Part shown: piece after piece, positions 2,491 through 62,708 of the stretch | Position numbering within the stretch: the first letter of the stretch is position 1 | Layout: every line of letters begins with the position of its first letter | NCBI GenBank assembly: GCA_964016885.1 | Contig: OZ024743.1 | Coordinates: forward strand, 224,130,001-224,194,000 | Reading direction: 5' to 3' | Origin: Eledone cirrhosa | Lineage: Eukaryota | DNA: 64,000 nucleotides | The notes under the pieces: generated by a model | What the model saw: only the letters and a program-made list of their open reading frames with translations | Told to the model about the DNA's origin: nothing | The model's database searches: none | Program-made: the position numbers and the translations under genes

Positions 2491-2541
2491 AGATATATAC
2501 AATATATTAATAAATGGAAACTATATTTATAAAACCATATT

Positions 2542-2607
2542 TATTTTATTATACATATTTCAAGGGCCACCAAGGCAAATTATGGTGCGCTTTCATTAGA
2601 TAAAATA
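2542..2607 (-). ncRNA. Hammerhead ribozyme at the 3' end (pLTR) of the Naiad-like PLE, core mutated (CUAAUGA)
   Basis: Minus strand TATTTTAT-CTAATGA-AAG..CACCA..TGGTG..CTT-GAAA-TATGTA-TA-ATAAAATA; 8-bp stem I; same sense as ORF 3917-5698. Confidence 0.7.
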
Positions 2608-3916
2608 CAGATTTGTTTTATAAATAAATATTGACATACCCGGAAAAAAAAGACAACCTTAACGGTTGGAGCTTCCTGGATAGTGGAGATATTACATTTA
2701 TTGAGGGTGATAGAAAATTATGATTGAGTATGCAAATGAGTGTCCGAAAGGTTGAAAAGATAACGGTTTATTTAAATTAAACTGTTGGAAGAAGGTGATA
2801 TGTGAGGGGGACAGAAAAAAGAATAAAGAAAAAAAAGAATAAAGAAATGAGAAAAAAAATAGGAGAGTAAAGAAAGAACGATTATATATATTTTGACAGT
2901 GAAAATAGCGTGCATGAAGAGAAGAGCGTAAGTATATTTAAGTGAGGAAAGGGAATAGTTTCAAAGGATAAATATAGTGAGGGAAGAAATGAAGAAAAGA
3001 ATAAATGAGAATAGCGTGGAAGAATAGTATTTATAATGTAGGATTCATTATGTTTTGATTATATTTATAATGATAGGTTGAAAAATTTAGATAAAAATTA
3101 AAAATTAAAATGTAATAATGTGTATGTTAAGGATTATAGATTATTTAAATAAATATATATTATTATTTTACATTAGAGCAAATCTAGTATAGTTTATTTT
3201 ATGTTGTAAGTTGTAAGTCAAAGATTTTAAACATCCAAATAATTCTAAATTTATGGAAAATTTTCGAGAGTTTACAAAATAATAACCACTTAGTTATATT
3301 ATAAAAACAGTAAGGAAGCGTAAAGGAAGTTATATGTGATTTTTTTTTTTTTAAAGTGATTTTTTAAGAACTCAGATGACTCTAAGGATTAAATGCTATA
3401 AAGTTAAGAAGTTAAATTTTCTATCTTAAGAATATAATTAAAAAATGAACCATATGTTATTTTATACGAAGTCATAAATTTACTTGCTATAAAGTTAAAA
3501 CATTTAAAAAAATTTATCTTACGAATATATTTAAAGCATAAACCATAGGTTACTCCACATATATATAAAAAATCATGTTTTTCCACATATATATAAACAT
3601 TTGGATATATATATTAAAAACGTTTGAAAATATAAGAATATAAAAATATAACAATATAAAAATATTGGAAGGTATAAAAATAATGGTTTTTCTATATCTT
3701 TCAAAGGAATTTTCAAAAGATTTTCTAAAACCTTTCCGTAAGTTTTTCGAGAAAAAATTTTCCTTAAAGGAGTTTCAAGCAGTCATATAAAGGAATTTTA
3801 TAATCTATCGATAGGTGTAATAATATATATGTGAAGTAGAGATATTAGAAAGTAAAATAAGTATATGAATCATATATAGATATAGAAGACAATATGTAAA
3901 AGAGATAAATCGTATA

Positions 3917-5755
<1,839 letters not shown>

Positions 5756-14159: not shown

Positions 14160-15379
14160 ATGCCAAAATCAACATACTGATTGCGGATTTGGTACGGGTG
14201 ATGAGAAACGTGTCCCGCATATGCAACCCCAAAGAACTAGAGAGATACATACAACACTTCATCCACCGTATGCAGTTCTCTGGTTACAACCAGAGAGATA
14301 AAATCAGAGTATATAGAGGAGCCTGAACCAAATGGGAAAAAATGGTAAATAATGACACAAATGGGACTGCCCCTTGTATAGGAGCAAATTTTGGAATAGA
14401 ATAGAAAGAACTAGGAATAAGGCTAATAGAATAAACTCATGGTATGATAGCAATAAATACCAGAGTGTAATGTTCATCGATACAACCCCTAGAGGTGAAT
14501 TAGCTTACAAATTTAGAAGGGCCCTAGATAAACATAAACTCAATATTAAGATAGTAGAAAGACCAGGTACCTCCATAAAAACATTTATTAGCAATACATA
14601 CCCTTTTCAAAGACCTGCCTGTATAGATAAGAAATGTATAATCTGTAAATTAAGCCCCCATATTAACTGTAAAACTAGAAATGTAGTAGATGTACTGAAG
14701 GACAATGTAGAGATAAAAATATAGTGTACATAGGTGAGACAGCTCGTAGTATAGGGGAACGGATAAATGAACACTGGCGAGACCTTCAAGATAGTAAAGA
14801 ATCATCTGTACTCTACCAACATGCTAAAATAGAACATAAAGGTAAATTAGAGAACATAGAAATAAAAATAGAATCTACACACAGAAAAGACGCAATGTTT
14901 AGACAAATCACAGAGGCAATAAACATAAATGAACTCCAATCAAAATTAAATAGAAAACATGAATTGAACAGCAACATCACAACTTACAATTAAGGACAAA
15001 ATGAAAACACACGCACATAGAACAAACAACCAACTAGTAACATGCAAATAAACAAATAAATAAATGAATATAAACACACACAGACACCCGGATGTAACAC
15101 ATGCGCAAACTAAGCACACAACACACACACAAAACAAGATGGCGTAGGACAGAACAAAGGAGAGGCACAAAAACAAAGAAAAGAATCCCCAGTCACTGAA
15201 GAGGTCACAGAATTGTGACGAAAGAACTTTGACAATATATGAACAATCGTCTGGTTGTGGAACCAACCAACCAACCGGAAATTTATAAATTCCTAAATTT
15301 ATAAATTTATTATAATAAATTGAAGTGAAAGCAAATGGTGCGTGTGTTTCTTATTGGCAACTTGACCCTCCCAAAGTAT

Positions 15380-24669: not shown

Positions 24670-27967
<3,298 letters not shown>

Positions 27968-27968
27968 G

Positions 27969-28000
<32 letters not shown>

Positions 28001-28002
<2 letters not shown>

Positions 28003-28429
28003 GTGACGAAACATAAGTCAATTGCATGAACTCATAATCCTTTATTTACTGCTATATATATTTCGATGATAGCCATTGAATGGCTATGACCTCATCAGGC
28101 AGTTAGTCAGTTCTTAGATATGCCAGCTCTGTGTTTATAGTGTTGATGGTATCAGAGCCTTAGGACATATCCTATGTCCCAAGGCTCTGATACCATCAAC
28201 ACTATAAACACAGAGCTGGCATATCTAAGAACTGACTAACTGCCTGGTGAGGTCATAGCCATTCAATGGCTATCATCGAAATATATATAGCAGTAAATAA
28301 AGGATTATGAGTTCATTCATGCAATTGAATTATGTTTTGTCACTATTATAACTCCGGAACTTATATCTTCGTTGAATGCTCCCTATCCGCATACTGAAGT
28401 ACTGGATTTTACCAACACTTACTTTCTTG

Positions 28430-28430
<1 letters not shown>
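28001..28430. mobile_element. Fold-back HHR element: palindrome 28001-28345 (centre ~28171) plus unpaired tail
   Basis: Near-perfect ~170-bp arms; HHRs at 28048-28103 (-, CUGAUGA) and 28239-28294 (+, CUGGUGA); (TA)n on both sides. Confidence 0.9.
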
Positions 28431-28468
<38 letters not shown>

Positions 28469-39759: not shown

Positions 39760-39994
39760 TAGAGCAAACAGATCAGAGCAAACAGCACGGACACTCTATC
39801 TCAAAATTATTTTTGAAAAGCATTTAGAAATGCGCAACTGGTAAAAACTTAAAAACTTAAAACCACAACTGAATACTAACCCATACAATCACTAATACTC
39901 TTTTATTCCTAATTAAACCATTTTTCAACTGTGAACAATTTGTCAGTATTTTCTATTCCGTTTACCAATATACATATATATATATATACATATA

Positions 39995-41524
39995 TGAGAG
40001 CTATACAAGCCATGTATAAAGAAACAGTCAGCAAGGTTAGAATTAACAACGAATATAGTGAAGAGTTTAGCGTAAAAGTTGGTGTTCATCAGGGCTCTGT
40101 TCTTAGCCCCCTACTATTTATTATTGTCCTTCAGGCTATAACAGTGGAGTTCAAGACCGGCTGCCCATGGGAACTCCTATACGCAGATGATCTAACGCTC
40201 ATAGCTGAATCAATGGCTGAGCTAGAGAAGAAATTCCAAACATGGAAGCACGGCCTAGAATCAAAAGGCCTTAAAATTAACCTGGCTAAGACTAAAGTTC
40301 TAGTTTGTAGGAAAGAAAATAAGGCGCCGGTCCCTTCCGGGAAATGGCCATGCTCAGTGTGTAGGAAAGGCGTAGGTAGAAACTCCATTTTATGTCCCAA
40401 ATGCAAAGTATGGGTGCATAAAAGATGTAGTGGGATCACAGGTAAGCTAACTAAGAACATAGATTTTACATGTGGCCGGTGCTCTGGTGCAATAAGTAGC
40501 AGCAAGTGCCCAAAAATACTAGCTCTTTCAATTGCGTAGAGGGTTCTATAGAAATAGTGGACAGCTTCCGTTACCTGGGTGACAAAATCAGCAGTGGGGG
40601 AGGGTGCTCTGAAAGTACAGTAGCTAGAGTCAGAACTGGATGGAAAAAGTTCAGAGAGCTTATACCACTATTAGCCGCTAAAGGGTTCTCCCTAAAATGA
40701 AAGGCAGGCTGTATGATGCCTGCATATGAACAGCAATGTTGCATGGCAGTGAGACCTGGGCATTGTGTGCAGAGGATATACGCAGACTAGAGAGGAACGA
40801 AGCTTGCATGCTCCGCCGGATGTGTAATAGTAATATACGCAAACGGCAAAGCATAAACAAACTAAGGGAAAAATTAGAAATAAGAGGGATCAGATGTTGT
40901 TTACTCGAGAGAAGGCTACGTTGGTATGGTCACGTGATGCGCATGAAAGACGACAGCTGTATAACAAAGTGCAAGGCAATAAAGATAGACGGTAGCCACG
41001 GAATAGGCAGACCTAGAAAATCCTGGGACGAGCTGATAAACTCCGACCTCACACACTTACACCTCTCCAAGACAATGTCACTGGACCGAGATCTTTGGCG
41101 GCACTCAGTAATAGAGAAGACCCGCCTTACCTAAATACAAAGTAAAACCTACTACAGTCAGTAGGCATCGCTAACAAAATACACCCCCGTCCCACCACCC
41201 CCACCCCATCCACACCGCCCCTTTCAATGTAAAGTTATGTTGGTGCCACAACATCCAGGCCGAAACAAATGAGATCGTGTAGGTATCACGACAAAAAACA
41301 CACAGTCCACGCTGTAATGTGGCCGTGTAGGCAACACGGTAAAAACCTCCCAGTCCCACACTGTAAATGTGGTTGGTGTTAGGAAGGGCATCCAGCTGTA
41401 GAAAACCCGCCAGACAGTCCTATGCGAGCAAGACAACCACTCTTGCCTCAAGTGGGAAAACTCCCATCCAAACCCATGCAAGCGTGGAACATGGACGTTA
41501 AACGATGATGATGATGATGATGAT
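39995..41524 (+). mobile_element. RTE LINE, 5'-truncated
   Basis: [35 protein letters not shown]; (GAT)n tail. Confidence 0.95.
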
Positions 41525-42815: not shown

Positions 42816-43463
<648 letters not shown>

Positions 43464-44672: not shown

Positions 44673-45195
44673 ACGGGGGTGTGTTTTGATAGAGATGCCT
44701 ACTGACTGTAGTAGGTTTTACTTTGTATTTAGGTAAGGCGGGTCTTCTCTATTACTGAGTACCGCCAAAGATCTCGGTCCAGTGACATTGTCTTGGAGAG
44801 GTGTAAGCGTGTGAGGTCGGAATTTATCATGTCGTCCCAGGTTTTTCTGGGTCTGCCTACTCCGTGGCTACCGTCTATCTTTATTGCCCTGCACTTTGTT
44901 ATACAGCTGTCGTCTTTCATGCGCATCACGTGACCGTACCAACGTAGCCTTCTCTCGAGTAAACAACATCTGATCCCTCTTATTTCTAATTTTTTCCTTA
45001 GTTCGTTTATGCTTAGCCGTTCACATATATTACTATTGCACATCCAGCGGAGCATGCAAGCTTCGTTCCTCTCTAGTCTGCGTATATCCTCTGCACACAA
45101 TGCCCAGGTCTCACTGCCATGCAGCATTGCTGTTCGTATGCAGGCATCGTATAACCTGCCTTTCATTTTTAGGGAGAACCCTTTAGCGGCTAATA
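44673..45195 (-). mobile_element. RTE LINE 3' fragment fused to a SINE B body
   Basis: ORF 44729-45166; junction at 44672/44673. Confidence 0.92.
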
Positions 45196-45261
45196 GTTCT
45201 CCCTAAAAATGAAAGGCAGGTTATACGATGCCTGCATACAAACAGCAATACATATATATAC

Positions 45262-45292
<31 letters not shown>

Positions 45293-46040
45293 CATACATA
45301 TATATATATATATCCCTGTGAAGTATAATGTAAATGCCATTTTTCTTATCTCTCTCCAGCCTATCGGTCCATTCATTCATATTGTTCTAAATAATCTTCT
45401 CTCTGCTATCGGTCCATTCATTCATATATCCGTTTCATCGCCCAAAATCCAATCTTTGCTCTCTCTCAATGCTATTCTATAATTCTGTCTGGTTGTTTCT
45501 AAATAATCTTCTTGTATTTTAATGCTATTCTATTATTCTGTCTGGTTGTTTCTAAATAATCTTCTTGTATTTTAAAACCCCATTATTCGCTTATTATTAC
45601 TGTTATATGCTTCCCCAATTATGCCCAAAATTCGAAGATTTCATTTAAAACCTCTCGCTAACTACCCCATTTGTTTTTCTAAAATAACAATCTTGTTTGT
45701 TTAAATTTAGCCGAAAAAAAAAAAAAAAAATTCTAGAATTTATAAAATGGCCTCATTGTCCCTCTTATCCTTTACCCCCCCCCCCCCCCCCCCCACTATA
45801 TCGTATTACGCGCCAGCTAGTTCACCCTCAGTTCACCCTTTCAATCACTCCCTTCTCTCACCAAATATAAATAATCTTCTCTCTGCTAACTACCCCATAT
45901 CCCTCCCTCCCGCCCCCACTCTCCACCTTATTATTTGGACCAATCACAAGTCAACGGCCTATGCTATCACTTCTGGCTGCTTTTCGATATGATGGATGGA
46001 CTAAGGAATTTCTGGAGAGTCTGAAGAATCTGGACACTCA

Positions 46041-49000
46041 ATGACAATGCCAAAGATAACAACAAATTCACCTCATGCTGCTGGACGAAAGGGCAAAGCC
46101 CCCTCCTCTTTGTTTCGGCCGCGGATGGCCAACATAACCCCAACCCCATCCCCCTCACCCCTCCCTGCGCCCCATCCTCCAAACACAATCCAAAACTTCA
46201 GAGTTGGTACCATGAATGTAGGCACCTTAAAAGGCCGCTCTAACGAGGTTGTAGAAATGCTTGAACGTAAGGAGGTTGATGTTTGCTGTATCCAAGAGAC
46301 CAGGTGGAGGGGCGGGTCTGCTAGATTCATTGTGGGTAAAAAACGTTGCTATAAGCTTTTCTGGGTGGGAAATGACAATGGGATCGGCGGGGTAGGAATC
46401 ATGTTAGCAGAAAAATGGGTGGATAAGATAATAGATGTAAATAGAGTAAATGACAGAATAATTAAAATAAGACTTGTTCTAAATAGAACTACTGTGACAG
46501 TAATATCGGCATACGAGCCCCAATCCGGACTGCCTGGCGCTATAAAAAACAAATTCTATGAGACACTGATGCTCACTACCTCCCAAATAACCGACAGTGA
46601 CTATATAATTATTGCTGGCGACCTAAATGGCCACGTTGGACAACATTGTGACGGCTATGATGGAATCCACGAAGGCTATGGGTTCGGTACTAGAAACGAG
46701 GAAGGCTCCAGAATCCTGGAATTCTGTGATGCAAATAACCTAACTATCTGTAACACAAACTTCAAAAAACGAGACAATCACTTGATCACCTACAGATCAG
46801 GGGAACCTACCAGCCAGGTAGATTATATCCTTACCAGAAGACGTGACAGAGTGTCTGTTGTAAACACTAAATCCCTCCCCCATGAAGAATGCACCTCCCA
46901 ACATAGACTGATAATTAGCGACCTCATAGTCAGAACGAGACGTACTAGACAGCAGAAGAGGACTATCCTCAGGAGAAAAATATGGAAGCTAAAGGACCCT
47001 ACAGCCAGAAATAAATTTAAAAGCATATTACTTGATGCTTTCGACAGTAAAGAAGAGCAATTAGAGTCGTACAATATAGAGGAACAGTGGGAATTCCTGA
47101 AAGCAAACCTGCTGGTGGCAGCAGACGAAGTCTGTGGCTGGAGCAGGCCTGTAGGCAGGAGGAGAGTAACATGGTGGTGGAACAGTAAGGTGGAGGAGTC
47201 AATCAACACCAAAAAGCAGGCTTGGAAAGTATGGCGGGATGGGGTAAGTAGAGAAGACTATCAAGTGGCTAGGAGACAAGTGTACTTCGCAAGAAGGGAA
47301 TCAGAGGAAAGAAAGTTCAAGCATGTTCTACAACGCGAGGACCAAAAACGTGAGGTGTTCAGGATTGCTAGGCAATGTGTCAAGGAAAACCGTGATATTG
47401 TCGGGGAGAAGTGTGTACTTAATGATGATGGCGTACTTGCCATCACTGACGCTGATAAGAAGGTAGCTTGGAAGTGTCACTACGAAAGGCTACTAAATGA
47501 GGAGAATAAATGGGAGAAAGACAGTCTCCCCCACATTGACCCAATAAAGGGACCAGCAGTGTTAGTCGAAGGTAGTATAATAAGTAAGGCAATCAAAGAT
47601 ATGAAGACGGGTAAGGCGGCTGGGCCTTCGGAAATAGTTGCTGAGATGCTGAAAGCCTCTGGAACGGTGGGACACACCATGGTCACCTGGATAGTAAACC
47701 AAGTCATATAGAATGGGGTTGTTCCGAAGGACTGGCGTAGCAGCAGCATCATTAACTGCTACAAGGGTAAAGGAGACGCCCTAGATAGGAGTAACTATAG
47801 AGGCATTAAATTAATCGACCAGGTCATGAAGGTCATGGAAAAAGTAATAGCGCAACTAATCAGAGAGAGAATTGATCTAGATGAAATGCAGACGCTCTTT
47901 TCATTGTACGACAACTACAGGAGAAGTACCTAGCTAAAAGTAAACCTCTATACTTAGCTTTTGTCGATTTGGAGAAAGCCTTCGACAGAGTTCCCCGTTC
48001 CATTATCTGGTGGGCTCTTAGAAAACTAGGTGTTGATGAATGGCTTGTGAGAGCTATACAAGCCATGTATAAAGAAACAGTCAGCAAGGTTAGAATTAAC
48101 AACGAATATAGTGAAGAGTTTAGCGTAAAAGTTGGTGTTCATCAGGGCTCTGTTCTTAGCCCCCTACTATTTATTATTGCCCTTCAGTCTATAACAGTGG
48201 AGTTCAAGACTGGCTGCCCATGGGAACTCCTATACGCAGATGATCTAACGCTCATAGCTGAATCAATGGCCGAGCTAGAGAAGAAATTCCAAACATGGAA
48301 GCACGGCCTAGAATCAAAAGGCCTTAAAATTAACCTGGCTAAGACTAAAGTTCTAGTTTGTAGGAAAGAAAATAAGGCGCCGGTCCCTTCCGGGAAATGG
48401 CCATGCTCAGTGTGTAGGAAAGGCGTAGGTAGAAACTCCATTTTATGTCCCAAATGCAAAGTATGGGTGCATAAAAGATGTAGTGGGATCACAGGTAAGC
48501 TAACTAAGAACATAGATTTTACATGTGGCCGGTGCTCTGGTGCAATAAGTAGCAGCAAGTGCCCATAAAATACTAGCTCTTTCAATTGCGCAGAGGGCTC
48601 TATAGAAATAGTGGACAGCTTCTGTTACCTAGGTGACAAAATCAGCAGTGGGGGAGGGTGCTCTGAAAGTACAGTAGCTAGAGTCAGAACTGGATGGAAA
48701 AAGTTCAGAGAGCTTATACCACTATTAGCCGCTAAAGGGTTCTCCCTAAAATGAAAGGCAGGCTGTATGATGCCTGCATACGAACAGCAATGTTGCATGG
48801 CAGTGAGACTTGGGTATTGTATACAGAGGATATACGCAGACTAGAGAGGAACGAAGCTTGCATGCTCCGCTGGATGTGTAATAGTAATATACGCGAACGG
48901 CAAAGCATAAACGAACTAAGGGTAAAATTAGAAATAAGAGGGATCAGATGTTGTTTACTCGAGAGAAGGCTACGTTGGTATGGTCACGTGATGCGCATGA

Positions 49001-53586: not shown

Positions 53587-54375
53587 ATACATACGTATAC
53601 ATATATATATATACATACATATACATATATATACATACATACATATATATATATACATACATACATATACATATATATACATATATATACATATATATAT
53701 ATATACATACATATACATATATATACATATATATACATTCATACATACATATACATATATATACATATATATACATTCATACATACATATACATATATAT
53801 ACATATATATATATATACACATATATACATTCACATATATATACATATATATATACATATATACATATACATATATACATACACATATATATATACATAT
53901 ATACATACACACATATATACATATATACATAAACATATATATATACATATATACATACACATATATATACATGGAGGCACATGGCTTAGTGGTTAGAGCA
54001 TTGGGCTTGCAATCGAAAGGTTGTGAGTTCAATTCTCAGACCGGGTGATGTGTTGTTTCCTTGTGCAAGAGACTTTATTTCACATTGCTCCAGTTTACTC
54101 AGCTGTAGAAATGAGATGATAGGGACTGGGGTCCATATCATTCCACTGTAAAGAGGTCGTAGAGGTGCCACGGCAAAAAAAAAAAGCACCCAGCACTCAC
54201 TGTAAATGAGGTTGGTGTTAGGAAGGGCATCCAGCTGTAGAAATCAAGCCAGAATCAGTTCCCGTCCCACCCTTGCAAGCAGGGAAAAGCGGACGAAAAT
54301 GAAATGATGATGATGATGATGATACATACACATATATATATATACATATATATATATACATATATATATATATAC

Positions 54376-54498: not shown

Positions 54499-57400
54499 CA
54501 TCATCATCATCATCATCGTTTAACGTCTATCTTCTACGCTAGCATGGGTTTGGACGGGAATTGTCCCACTTGAGGCAAGATTGGTTGTCTTACTCGTGTA
54601 GGACTGTCTGGCAGGTTTTCTACGGCTGGATGCCCTTCCTAACACCAACCACGTTTACAGTGTGGTCTGGGAGGTTTTTACCGTGTTACCTATACGGCCA
54701 CATTACAGCGTGGACTGTGAGTTTTTTTTTTTTTTGTCATGACACCTACACAACCTCATTAATTTAGGACTGGATGTTGTGGTACCAACATAACTTTACA
54801 TCGAAAGGCGTGGTGTAGATGGGGGTGGGGGTAGTGGAATGGGGGTGTATTTTGGTTAAGAGGTGCCTACTGACTTTAGGTTTCGCTTTGTACTTAGGCA
54901 AGGCAGGTCTTCTGTATTACTGCGTAGTGCCAAAGATCTTGGTCCAGTGACATTGTCTTGGAGAGGTGTAAGGTCAGAATTTATCAAGTCATCCCAGATT
55001 TTTCTGGGTCTGCCTACTCCGTAGCTACCGTCTATTTTGATCGCCTTGCACTTTTTATACAGCTGTCGTCTTTCATGCGCATCACATAACCGTACCAACG
55101 TAGTCTTCTCTCAAGTAAACAGCATCTGATCCCTCTTATTCCTAATTTCTCACTTAGTTCATTTATGCTTTGCCGTTCACATATATTACTATTACACATC
55201 CAACGAAGCATGCAAGCTTCGTTCCTCTCCAATCTGCATAGATCCTCTGCACACAATGCCCATGTTTCACTGCCATGTAACATTGCTGTTCGTATGCAGG
55301 CATCATAGAGCCTGACTTTCATTTTTAGAGAGAAACCTTTAGCGGCCAATAGTGGTATAAGCTCTCTGAACTTTTTCCATCCCGTTCTGACTCTAGCTAC
55401 TGTACTTTCAGCGCACCCTCCACCACTGCTGATTTTGTCAACCAGTTAACGGAAATGAGCTAGTATCCTGTGGGCAGTTGCTACTACTTATTGCACCTGA
55501 GCACAGGCCACATATAAAATCTATGTTCTTAGTTAGCTTACCTGTGATCCCACTACATCTTTTATGCACCCATACTTTGCATTTGGGACATAAAATTGAG
55601 TTTCTGCCTACTCCTTTCCTACACACTGAGCATGGCCATTTCCCAGAGGGGACCAGTGCCCTATTTTCCTTCCTACATACTAGAACTTTAGTCTTAGACA
55701 AATTAATTTTAAGACCTTTTGATTCTAGGCCATGCATCCATGTTTGGAATTTCTTCTCTAGTTCAGCCATTGATTCAGCTATGAGGGTTAGATCATCTGC
55801 CTATGCGCAGCCGGTCTTGAACTCCTCTGTTATAGCCTGAAGGGCAATAATAAATAGGAGGGAGCTAAGGACAGAGCCCTGATGAACACCAACTTTTACG
55901 CTAAACTCTTCACTATATTTATTGTTAATTCTAACCTTGCTGACTGTTTCTTTATACATGGCTTGTATAACTCTCACAAGCCATTCATCAACACCTAGTT
56001 TTCTGAGAGCCCACCAGATAATGGGGGCGTCGGACCCTGTCGAAGACTTTTTCCAAGTCAACAAAAGCTAAGTATAGGGGTTTACTTTTAGCTAGGTACT
56101 TCTCCTGTAGTTGTCGTACAAGGAAAAGAGCGTCTGTGGTACTTTTACCTGACACAAACCCAAACTGCATTTCATCTAGATCAATTCGTTCTCTGATTAG
56201 TTGTGCTATTACTTTTTCTGTGACCTTCATGACCTAGTCAATTAATTGAATGCCTCTATAGTTTCCCCTATCTAGGGCATCACCTTTACCCTTGTTGCAG
56301 TTAATGATGATGCTGCTATGCCAGTCCTTTGGTACGACCCCATTCTGTATGACTTGGTTTACTATCCGGGTGACCATAGTGTGTCCTACCGTTCCAGATG
56401 CTTTCAGCATTTCAGCAACTATTTCCGAAGGCCCAGCCGCCTTGCCCGTCTTCATATCTTTGATTGCCTTATTTATTATACTACCTTCAACTTGCACTCC
56501 TGGTCCCTCTATTGGATCGTTGTGGGGGAGACTGTCTTTCTCCCATTTATTCTCCTCATTTAGTAGCCTTTCGTAGTGACACTTCCAAGCTACCTTCTTA
56601 TCAGCGTCAGTGATGGCAAGTACACCATCATTATTACGGACACACTTCTCCCCGACAATATCACGGTTTTCCTTGACACATTGCCTAGCAATCCTGAACA
56701 CCTCGCGTTTTTGGTCCTTGCGTTGTAGAACATACTTGAACTTTCTTTCCTCTGATTCCCTTCTTGCGAAGTACACTTGTCTCCTAGCCACTTGATAGTC
56801 TTCTCTACTTCCCCCATCCCACCATACTTTCCAAGCCTGCTTTTTGGTGTTGATTGACTCCTCCACCTTACTGTTCCACCACCAAGTTACTCTCCTCTTG
56901 CCTATAGGTCTGCTCCAGCCACAGACTTCATCTGTCGCCTTCAGCAGGTTACCTTTCAGGAATTCCCACTTTTCCTCTATATTGTACGACTCTAATTGCT
57001 CTTCCTTACTGTCGAAAGCATCAAGTAATATGCTTTTAAATTTAACTTCCATATATTTAACTTCCATATTTTTCTCCTGAGGATTGTCCTCTGCTGTTGT
57101 TGAGTACGTCTTGTCCTGACTATGAGGTCGCTAACTATGAGGTGCATTCTTCATGGGGGAGGGATTTAGTGTTTACAACAGACATCTGTCACATCTTCTG
57201 GTAAGGATATAATCTATCTGACTGGCGTGTTCCCCTGATCTATAGGTGATCAATGATTGTCTCGTTTTTTGAAGTTTGTGTTACAGATAGTTAGGTTATT
57301 TGCGTCACAGAATTCCAGGATTCTGGAGCCTTCCTCATTTCTAGTACCAAACCCATAGCCTCCATCGATTCCGTCAAAGCCATCACAATGTTGTCCAACG

Positions 57401-60076: not shown

Positions 60077-61574
60077 AGGTTAGAATTAACAACGAATATA
60101 GTGAAGAGTTTAGCGTAAAAGTTGGCGTCCATCAGGGCTCTGTTCTCAGCCCACTACTATTTATTATTGCCCTTCAGGCTATAACAGAGGAGTTCAAGAC
60201 AGGCTGCCCATGGGAACTCCTATACGCAGACGACCTGACACTCATAGCGGAATCAATGGCCGAGCTAGAGAAGAAATTCCAAACATGGAAGCACGGCCTA
60301 GAGTCAAAAGGACTTAAAATTAACCTGGCTAAGACCAAAGTACTAGTTTGTAGGAAAGAAAACAAGGCGGCGGTCCCTTCTGGGAAATGGTCGTGCTCGG
60401 TGTGTAGGAAAGGCGTAGGTAGAAACTCCATTTTATGTCCTAAATGCAAAGTATGGGTGCATAAAAGATGTAGTGGGATCACAGGTAAGCTAACTAAGAA
60501 CATAGATTTTACATGTGGCCGGTGCTCTGGTGCAATAAGTAGCAGCAAGTGCCCACAAGCTACTAGCTCTTTCAATTGCGCAGAGGGTTCTATAGAAATA
60601 GTGGACAGCTTCCGTTACCTGGGCGATAAAATCAGCAGTGGGGGAGGGTGCTCTGAAAGTACTGTAGCTAGAGTCAGAACTGGTTGGAAAAAGTTCAGAG
60701 AGCTTATACCACTATTAGCTGCTAAAGGGTTCTCACTGAAAATGAAAGGCAGGTTGTACGATGCCTGCATACGAACAGCAATGCTGCATGGCAGTGAGAC
60801 CTGGGCATTGTGTGCAGAGGATATACGCAGACTAGAGAGGAACGAAGCTTGCATGCTCCGCTGGATGTGTAACAGTAATATACGTGAACGGCAAAGCATA
60901 AACGAACTAAGGAAAAAATTAGAGATAAGAGGGATCAGATGTTGTTTACTCGAGAGAAGGCTACGTTGGTATGGACACGTGATGCGCATGAAAGTCGATA
61001 GCTGTATAACAAAGTGCAGGGCAATAAAGATAGACGGTAGTCACGGAATAGGCAGACCTAGAAAAACCTGGGACGAGCTGATAAACTCCGACATCACACA
61101 CTTACACCTCTCCAAGACAATGTCACTGGACCGTGACCTTTGGCGGTACCCAGTAACAGAGAAGACCCGCCTTACCTAAATATATAGTAAAACCTACTCC
61201 AGCCAGTAGGCATCCCTAACAAAATACACCCCGTCCCACCACCCCCACCCCTACCCCATCCACACCACCCCGTTCTATGTAAAGTTATGTTGGTGCCGCG
61301 CCATCGAGGCCGAAACAAATGAGATCGTGTAGGTGTCACGACAAAAAAACACACAGTCCACGCTGTAATGTGGCCGTGTAGGCAACACGGTAAAAACCTC
61401 CCAGACCCACACTGTAAATGTGGTTGGTGTTAGGAAGGGCATCCAACTGTAGAAAACCTGCCAGACAGTCCTATGCGAGCAAGACAATCACTCTTGCCTC
61501 AAGTGGGACTACCCCCGTCCAAACCCATGCAAGCGTGGAACACGGACGTTAAACGTTGATGATGATGATGATGA
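60077..61574 (+). mobile_element. RTE LINE, 5'-truncated, uninterrupted C-terminal ORF (to 61179)
   Basis: 307-aa ORF with PHD-like finger and LRWYGHVMR; (GAT)n tail. Confidence 0.96.
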
Positions 61575-61777: not shown

Positions 61778-62286
61778 TAAAATAAAGTTAAATAAAAGTC
61801 AAATGATTAAAATTTAGCTTTGTTTATTACTGCTATATATATTTCAGTGACAGCCATCTTTGGCTGTGACCTCTTCAGGCAGTTTGAATTAGTATGGTAT
61901 AGACAAGTACATATGTTGTTTAGGTGTATGATATTGTCAAATACTGGGGAACTGGAGTCATATGGATATGACTCCAGTTCCCCAGTGAATTAACAACCCA
62001 GCAAGGAACTGGGCATATCAGAGTATTGACAATATCATACACCTAAACAACATATGTACTTGTCTATACCATACTAATTCAAACTGCCTGAAGAGGTCAC
62101 AGCCAAAGATGGCTGTCACTGAAATATATATAGCAGTAATAAACAAAGCTAAATTTTAATCATTTGACTTTTATTTAACTTTATTTTACACTACTCCGGA
62201 GTAACCAAACCAACCTGCGCACTTCGTCGAGTGCTCCAGCCTGCATACTGAGGTGTTGGTATACAACCAACATAAACTCAAAATCT
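61778..62286. mobile_element. Fold-back HHR element: palindrome 61778-62188 plus tail
   Basis: Identical HHRs at 61829-61883 (-) and 62083-62137 (+): ACTGC-CTGAAGA-GGTCACAGCCA AAGA TGGCTGTCACT-GAAA-TATATA-TA-GCAGT. Confidence 0.92.
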
Positions 62287-62708
62287 ATATACTTATATAT
62301 ATATATACTTATATATGTATATATATATACACATATATATACATATATACTTATATATACTTATAAATATATACTTATATATATGGAGGCACATGGTTTA
62401 GTGGTTAGAGCATTGGCCTTGCAATCGAAAGGTTGTGAGTTCAATTCTCAGACCATGTGATGTGTTGTTTCCTTGAGCAAGACACTTTATTTCACATTGC
62501 TCCAGTTTACTCAGCTGTAGAAATGAGATGATAGGGACCCCAGTCCCTATCATTCCACTGCAAAGTGGTTGTGTAGGTGCCACGGATGTAAATGAGGTTG
62601 GTGTTAGGAAGGGCATCCAGCTGTAGAAATCAAGCCAGAATCAGTTCCCGTCCCACCCTTGCAAGCAAGGAAAAGCGGATGTAAAATGATGATGATGATG
62701 ATGATGAT

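Follow-up and report, generated by a model that had tools for sequence, protein, structure and literature searches.

Inverted, one-tailed pLTR stubs in Eledone cirrhosa very probably derive from Hydra-clade Penelope-like retrotransposons with a covarying hammerhead

Introduction

Inverted, 5'-truncated pLTRs, palindromes at their junctions and a tail at one end have been described for EN+ Penelope-like elements (PLEs) (PMC3846280, PMC8557442, PMC8969392), and the origin of the inverted pLTRs and of the one-sided tails is named as unresolved in the accessible text of two of these studies (PMC8557442, PMC3846280). For example, the Pen2a-type insertions of Adineta vaga have the same head-to-head truncated copy, junction palindrome and single tail as the locus described here (PMC3846280). 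An inverted pLTR with a one-sided tail is the published layout of the PLE class and is not new. Compared with the EN+ PLE inverted pLTRs in the accessible parts of these reports, the tail here is 82-98 nt long and not 30-40 nt, many copies are body-less, and no target-site duplication is visible in (TA)n (PMC3846280, PMC8557442, PMC8969392).

Within the class, the Hydra clade is defined in the available text of PMC8557442 by an RWK motif, a change of DKG to DKT, a CxCx5C linker, the lack of CCHH, CxxC/CxH around E and N, a (TA)n target and a canonical hammerhead; a length of <3 kb is given there as a tendency and not as diagnostic. The clade shares its motifs, its (TA)n target and a sense hammerhead near the 3' end with the families reported here, and one of its members, Penelope-13_HM, has an inverted 5'-truncated copy with a hammerhead on both strands, as here (PMC8557442). 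The present families differ from the clade as described in a unit of ~4 kb, with a low-complexity insert behind the RT thumb and a long 3' part rich in TA, and from the hammerhead rows listed in the accessible part of the same paper in an 11-position stem II with a C-C mismatch and a stem III that is a perfect 8-nt TA palindrome (PMC8557442). The octopus entry Hydra-1_Obim, listed as 'no pLTR', has a hammerhead that differs from those of our families A and B and proteins that are colinear with theirs in motifs by eye (PMC8557442); families A and B seem to differ from this entry.

The dimer-type hammerheads of PLEs (Cervera and de la Pena 2014, PMC4209133) have the same type I architecture as ours, with a short stem I, a long stem II and a palindromic stem III, and likewise occur as thousands of dispersed copies, in covarying families and as dual motifs on opposite strands 100-700 bp apart. 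Compared with the hammerheads in the accessible text of that study, those reported here have a conserved C-C at stem II position 4 and need no unpaired base between A9 and stem II (PMC4209133). PLE hammerheads are reported to cleave weakly or to require protein (PMC11167929, PMC4209133). In the Poseidon element of Anolis (PAc; Frangieh et al. 2024, PMC11167929), both strands of the target are nicked and extended, two internal RT start sites bound the tail, and ribozyme cutting is protein-assisted and not needed. The unit end and the tail end of our families would be two start sites of this kind, and AT-rich targets and extension of both strands are further likenesses, whereas PAc belongs to another clade and its ORF starts inside stem II, not beyond the tail as here (PMC11167929). 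Inverted pairs are not addressed in the accessible text of the PAc study (PMC11167929).

Results

Layout of the two elements

The window analysed here is a stretch of 64,000 nucleotides from E. cirrhosa (GCA_964016885.1, contig OZ024743.1, positions 224,130,001 to 224,194,000, forward strand). At 28003-28432 it holds a head-to-head palindrome with arms of 167 and 174 nt and an 86-nt tail on one side, lying inside (TA)n. The left flank (27640..28002) is a (TA)n-rich microsatellite in which a target-site duplication is not discernible, and the (TA)n target resumes on the right (28433..28466). The tail-less arm, an inverted 5'-truncated pLTR of family A (28003..28169, minus strand), stops at the unit end, ~+57 from the predicted ribozyme cut. 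It is followed by a TCC spacer at the palindrome turn (28170..28172), by the direct pLTR arm of family A (28173..28346, plus strand) and by the one-sided tail (28347..28432, plus strand), which is the beginning of the next unit, is 82-86 nt long and continues into an RT-endonuclease frame at four other loci (L003, L005, L010 and L014). Both arms terminate at TCATATG, a family motif that coincides with a hotspot of 5' ends and is a candidate transcription start. Folded as single-stranded DNA, the element reaches -193.7 kcal/mol (z -33.7), and none of 100 shuffles was equally good.

The arms differ by 4 substitutions per 169 aligned bases and by one 4-nt duplication (TTCA). Four of these five differences are on one arm and one is on the other; the direct arm has private changes at 28247, 28329 and 28338 and the TTCA duplication at 28312-28319. 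The first-pass annotation, made from the sequence before this analysis, had likewise noted that the arms differ at a few sites, among them a CUGGUGA core on the plus arm. Like that core, the other arm differences are missing from the family-A copies inspected, and we therefore regard them as most likely post-insertion changes.

A second element at 61778-62286 is equal in structure and comes from a sister family, B. Its inverted pLTR arm (61778..61963, minus strand) has a 37-nt internal deletion near the turn and a hammerhead at 61829-61883, its direct pLTR arm (61966..62188, plus strand) has a hammerhead at 62083-62137, and its tail of ~98 nt (62189..62286, plus strand) continues into a homologous RT-endonuclease frame in L044 and L148. 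The core is CUGAAGA on both arms, a detail omitted from the first-pass annotation. That annotation had described both elements as palindromes with a one-sided tail and TA flanks, which we confirm.

Comparison of the two elements also bears out its more specific observations. Stems I and III are common to both, ACUGC/GCAGU and AUAUAUAU being identical. Stem II of each element reads as annotated, and the reported U-A to C-G compensation is present at pair 6 and is the sole two-sided change; two further changes are one-sided and preserve pairing, and pair 4 is a C-C mismatch in both elements. Overall the ribozymes are 83% alike. The sequence 5' of the ribozyme, called dissimilar, is 58% alike over 64 nt, against a mean of 51% and a maximum of 62% in shuffled sequence. 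Between the cut and the unit end the likeness (57%) falls inside the shuffled range, and that of the tails (56%) is at the shuffled maximum.

Several other repeats occur in the window. tRNA-derived SINE heads follow TA tracts at 43210-43267, 53982-54039 and ~62390-62450, and fragments of an AP-endonuclease/RT LINE, 94-96% alike, lie at 39913-41190, 44673-48568, 56165-57130 and 60079-61232. In a loose scan, CUGANGA...GAA matches with short stems were found at 15196 and 16688 (both plus strand); these may be other ribozyme-bearing repeats, or chance.

The parent retrotransposon

The right arm and tail of 28003-28432 as query gave 727 candidates in the genome assembly, and 61778-62286 gave 366; the 40 scored among the 727, window itself aside, are 95-97% identical to the query. 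The exact hammerhead core pattern has 10,672 matches in the assembly and its reversed control none. In 4 of the first 30 family-A loci, those named above, the tail runs into coding sequence instead of (TA)n. In all four, a pLTR and the tail lead into an RT frame, which is followed by a low-complexity insert, a GIY-YIG-type endonuclease at the C terminus, a 3' part rich in TA and another pLTR. This second, 3' pLTR halts exactly where the inverted arm of 28003-28432 ends, and (TA)n follows. Direct pLTRs of unequal 5' length thus flank the ORF in the extended copies, and the ORF starts ~195 nt past the ribozyme cut, beyond the tail. The unit of family A measures 3.9-4.15 kb between hammerheads; an internally deleted copy of family B measures 3.37 kb. 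RT followed by a VVY...YIG endonuclease was found in L061-L064 and L148, with frameshifts in every copy seen. In family B, the layout in L148 is that of family A, and open frames are 49-68% identical to those of family A. Searches of the RT and endonuclease pieces against Pfam recognised neither domain, and a PDB sequence search returned nothing under E 0.35. Look-alikes in the ESM Atlas, which are leads from one source, fall into clusters bearing RVT_1 and into GIY-YIG clusters, at 0.92-0.96. Copies with the ORF are far fewer than the short stubs, which are 95-97% identical to the ends of full elements.

On this sequence evidence, 28003-28432 very probably consists of 5'-truncated pLTR stubs of an autonomous Hydra-clade Penelope-like retrotransposon, that is, a body-less inverted pLTR insertion. 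It is an ordinary object, one of about ten thousand stubs of a known retrotransposon class.

As in EN+ PLEs, there is a single ORF with RT and, at its C terminus, a GIY-YIG endonuclease, a pLTR from a partial tandem, direct or inverted, with an optional 3' tail, and a sense-strand hammerhead in the pLTR. The RWK-type motif near the N terminus reads RMRWRA in family A and RMRWKA in family B; family A has ADKT at the DKT motif; the CxCx5C linker is CNCRDPSLC in family A and CNCRNPESC in family B; CCHH is absent, with one Cys between VVY and YIG; and E and N are surrounded by CNLC..E..N..CRH. (TA)4 follows 95 of 108 3' ends, against a background of 11-14%. The single mismatch with the definition is length, 3.9-4.15 kb in elements of a clade said to be generally short (<3 kb). 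Length aside, the motifs match the written definition point by point, and on these motifs we assign the families, provisionally, to the Hydra clade.

Other classes of element were considered. Naiad and Chlamys elements have an N-terminal endonuclease and no canonical hammerhead, whereas here the endonuclease is C-terminal and a hammerhead of canonical order is present. Non-LTR retrozymes form head-to-tail tandem monomers, whereas the 78 loci sampled below hold no arrays and consist of single arms or head-to-head pairs. A MITE was rejected because of the variable turns and the link to RT.

Two more distant relatives lie in the window. At 2500-5620 (minus strand) there is a third, 5'-truncated Hydra-type element, with a 567-aa open RT and endonuclease frame (55% to family A RT) and a long 3' part rich in AT. 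A decayed, family-C-like hammerhead stands at ~2545-2605 near its end, where (TA)n takes over; the element links family C, one of the further lineages introduced below, to an ORF. At 25556-26239 (plus strand), a 227-aa GIY-YIG-type endonuclease fragment belongs to a more distant family, 29-35% to A and B, and a hammerhead scan downstream of it found none.

Hammerhead motifs and covariation

The minus arm of 28003-28432 has a type I hammerhead motif at 28048..28103 with an intact CUGAUGA core and a predicted cut between 28053 and 28052; the plus-arm motif at 28239..28294 has a private A6G core, CUGGUGA. Each arm has stem I ACUGC/GCAGU, an 11-position stem II with the C-C mismatch, GAAA and an AUA cut site, and the palindrome AUAUAUAU forms stem III of both hammerheads. 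The minus arm and the family thus have the features of a type I hammerhead, namely the CUGANGA and GAAA cores, three stems, an NUH site and covariation, and the plus arm departs from the core at A6. We assume that this hammerhead is probably impaired. CUGGUGA was seen in 1 of 90 family-A arms, the plus arm itself, in a set partly chosen by a pattern that demands A6, and for this reason it is most likely decay after insertion and not a functional variant.

At the Rfam gathering threshold, the whole window gave no hammerhead and just two tRNA-like SINE heads. Free-energy folding of monomer and dimer did not recover the catalytic hammerhead fold, and in dimer co-folding the stem III palindromes of the two strands paired weakly with each other (-3.2 kcal/mol). 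In the RNA of the master element, the hammerhead is predicted to act as a dimer by way of its stem III palindrome; in the stubs, which lack a promoter, it is probably inert.

Two relaxed patterns (347 and 177 matches, controls 0) led to four further lineages, A2, C, D and E, and the arms available per family were 90 (A), 8 (A2), 165 (B), 22 (C), 8 (D) and 2 (E). Among 16 chosen representatives, pairing holds in 94.9% of the cells and both sides have changed in 10 of 16 pairs, a number reached by 8 of 500 shuffles in a control that ignores relatedness. The covariation score of these representatives is 0.61; shuffling gives 0.31, and sliding no more than 0.14. When each of families A-D is represented by one modal pair, pairing is kept in 39 of 44 stem II cells, where the null mean is 29.7 (p 2e-5, with relatedness not fully corrected). 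The C-C mismatch at stem II position 4 occurs in 89/90 arms of family A, 7/8 of A2, 158/165 of B, 16/22 of C, 8/8 of D and 2/2 of E, and the pairs adjoining it covary across these six families.

Because covariation extends across six lineages, the hammerhead fold is likely under selection across master lineages, acting on the master elements and not on the stubs. The first-pass annotation had argued for selected structure from the two elements and had suggested testing covariation on a larger alignment. Covariation between families (10 of 16 pairs) supports selection of the ribozyme, and not of the palindrome itself, 46 of 78 loci having no inverted arm; the covariation holds across the six lineages, whereas the two elements by themselves provide one two-sided change.

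Fold-backs across the genome

For an unbiased set, we took the first 100 listed among the 10,672 core matches (C1, first 47 Mb), which fall into 83 loci; 5 were dropped as repeats, leaving 78. These comprise 32 head-to-head pairs, no tail-to-tail pair and 46 single arms (31 tail-less, 12 tailed and 3 other). The first-pass annotation had proposed that fold-back formation recurs, a reading at odds with homologues that are never palindromic; 32 of the 78 are palindromic, all of them head-to-head, and the proposal stands. In this set family B forms fold-backs at 30 of 56 loci and family A at 2 of 22, and the pair statistics are thus mostly those of family B. Families C and A2 likewise form head-to-head pairs.

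Of the 32 pairs, 4 are unscorable; 27 of the others are one-tailed, 1 is tail-less and none is two-tailed. One-tail pairs therefore make up 27 of 28 scorable cases, against a ceiling of 50% for independent choice of ends (p 1e-7), and on this rule the two starts would be coupled. Counted from the predicted cut, the 3' ends themselves form two classes, ~+40 to +64 and +135 to +160, with the unit end at ~+57 and the tail end at ~+140 to +155. Exceptions are the pair L046/L052 with two tails, L118 with no tail, and L207 (family D), which is tail-to-tail around a short TA tract and is the sole tail-to-tail pair of one family seen. At L027, L038 and L048, family C stubs lie in the TA tract directly after A or B tails, tail to tail; this is repeated insertion into one microsatellite. 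The upstream flanks of L010, L017 and L025 contain a further family of short palindromic repeats, inserted in (TA)n, whose sequence is unrelated to that of families A-E.

None of the head-to-head pairs combines an A arm with a B arm, and where a subfamily is rare its two arms match (in L068, for example, 0.95 against a median of 0.81). Over 110 nt, arm-to-arm identity is above the family median in 35 of 46 pairs; it is at or above that of the best outside copy in just 14 of 46, a measure too blunt to prove a single template. Loci differ from one another in arm length and in turn point. Of 21 tight pairs with one tail, 10 have a tail-less arm that reaches further upstream, 5 have a tailed arm that does so, and 6 have arms equal within 10 nt. 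Both arms usually cover one region (18/21), the arms share no sequence in 3/21, and the junctions overlap by 1-8 nt in 15/21.

The 5' ends cluster as well. They lie within 3 nt of the A of CATATG, at -118 in A and -167 in B, in 10 of 24 arms of family A and 23 of 91 of family B, neighbouring 7-nt bins holding at most 5. TCATATG is found 56 nt (A) and 52 nt (B) below a shared CTGACCAATGAG, amid sequence that is otherwise unalignable (L062:1538-1600, L148, 3' pLTRs); we take CTGACCAATGAG to be CCAAT-box-like. Family C carries ATTTGCAT upstream instead (L178; window ~2735, minus strand), which is presumably octamer-like. Upstream of the proposed start, many tailed arms continue for a long way, as far as -547. 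We did not count the 5'-end pile-ups at -246 and -547 as real ends; they resemble breaks in the alignment to the reference copy. Short-read contigs from three runs (X1-X3) have loose, TA-flanked ends at the same three positions, in one sample that may not be independent of the assembly, and two of the three runs contain one opposite-strand joint.

Discussion

In LINE-1 twin priming, the second target strand primes internally, which gives a head-to-head inversion joined by microhomology. We favour, at about an even chance, a related process in which twin priming at two fixed sites on one RNA made the head-to-head pair; it differs from the LINE-1 case in having two fixed start sites and in that one region is usually copied into both arms. 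Judging from motifs and end pile-ups, the RNA would start at TCATATG under an internal CCAAT promoter. The endonuclease would nick both strands of (TA)n; one nicked strand would prime at the tail end, its counterpart at the unit end. As both cDNAs advance toward the 5' end of the RNA, the trailing one would either stall behind the leading one or displace it, and a few shared bases would serve to join the two 3' ends. We prefer twin priming because tail-less arms that are longer than the tailed arm, or disjoint from it, are hard to obtain by self-copying. Against it, the tailed arms that reach -547 would need read-through from tandem arrays. Secondary deletion could, moreover, mimic unequal or non-overlapping arms; it is a real confounder because palindromes lose their centres, as in the 37-nt deletion of 61778-62286.

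Self-priming has been proposed for such insertions (PMC3846280): a cDNA or antisense template would fold back at a short palindrome, here CATATG, and be copied on itself, and an endonuclease would leave the one-sided tail, a resolution put forward in PMC8557442. The turn at the palindromic CATATG, the 6 of 21 tight pairs that are symmetric within 10 nt and the origin of both arms from one family agree with this, yet a copy cannot exceed the tailed strand, and the tail-less arm reaches further upstream in 10 of 21 pairs and is disjoint in 3. Self-priming would need later one-sided deletions in all such pairs, and we consider it unlikely. Slightly less likely still is an asymmetric protein dimer with two RNAs, in which one subunit always begins at the tail end and its partner at the unit end. 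PAc is a predicted dimer that extends both strands (PMC11167929), the palindromic stem III can pair two RNAs in co-folding, and the arms cover one region in 18 of 21 tight pairs; the dimer would, however, require a built-in asymmetry to give 27 one-tail pairs in 28. The lack of mixed A/B pairs and the matching arms of rare subfamilies also speak for one RNA, although a cis preference could explain them as well.

The first-pass annotation had instead pointed to an independent non-coding fold-back ribozyme element, retrozyme- or MITE-like, with the palindrome and ribozymes under selection. Stubs do far outnumber ORF copies, 5' ends are fixed in many copies, and non-LTR retrozymes are reported to derive from pLTRs in the accessible part of a recent preprint (bioRxiv 10.64898/2026.07.22.740005). 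The variable arm lengths and turns largely refute such an element, and the 46 single arms among 78 loci, the absence of tandem arrays, the private change in the plus core and the 95-97% identity of stubs to full-element ends make it improbable. Palindromes adjoining microsatellites are a known class of artefact. A long-read fold-back or assembly artefact is nevertheless a negligible prospect here: the arms differ at five places, the inverted arm halts at a fixed site, and short-read contigs (one sample) have the same ends, in agreement with the annotation's rejection of a read artefact. Taken as a whole, that earlier reading was right about hammerhead covariation, recurrence and the absence of an artefact, whereas it missed the identity of the element as a PLE pLTR, and the palindrome itself gives no sign of selection.

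In the literature searched, which covered few subscription journals, we found no statement of fixed-site twin priming for PLE fold-backs and no description of these families; families A-E may be catalogued in repeat collections such as Repbase or Dfam. The new detail reported here is a near-strict one-tail rule, which we quantify, together with a 5'-end hotspot at TCATATG. This work also adds several Hydra-clade families missed by Pfam and Rfam, and a covarying hammerhead set with a conserved mismatch.

We suggest, as a joint proposal that we hold at somewhat less than an even chance, that PLEs class-wide integrate by fixed-site twin priming of one uncleaved RNA from a CCAAT-driven internal promoter, and that the C-C mismatch conserved across six hammerhead lineages would point to a contact, tertiary or with protein, that controls cutting. 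The one-tail rule, the non-overlapping arms and the shared 5'-end hotspot yield predictions that can be tested in the published PAc in vitro system. If true, fixed-site twin priming would be a single mechanism behind the inverted pLTR found across the class, the tail on one side and the palindromes at the junctions.
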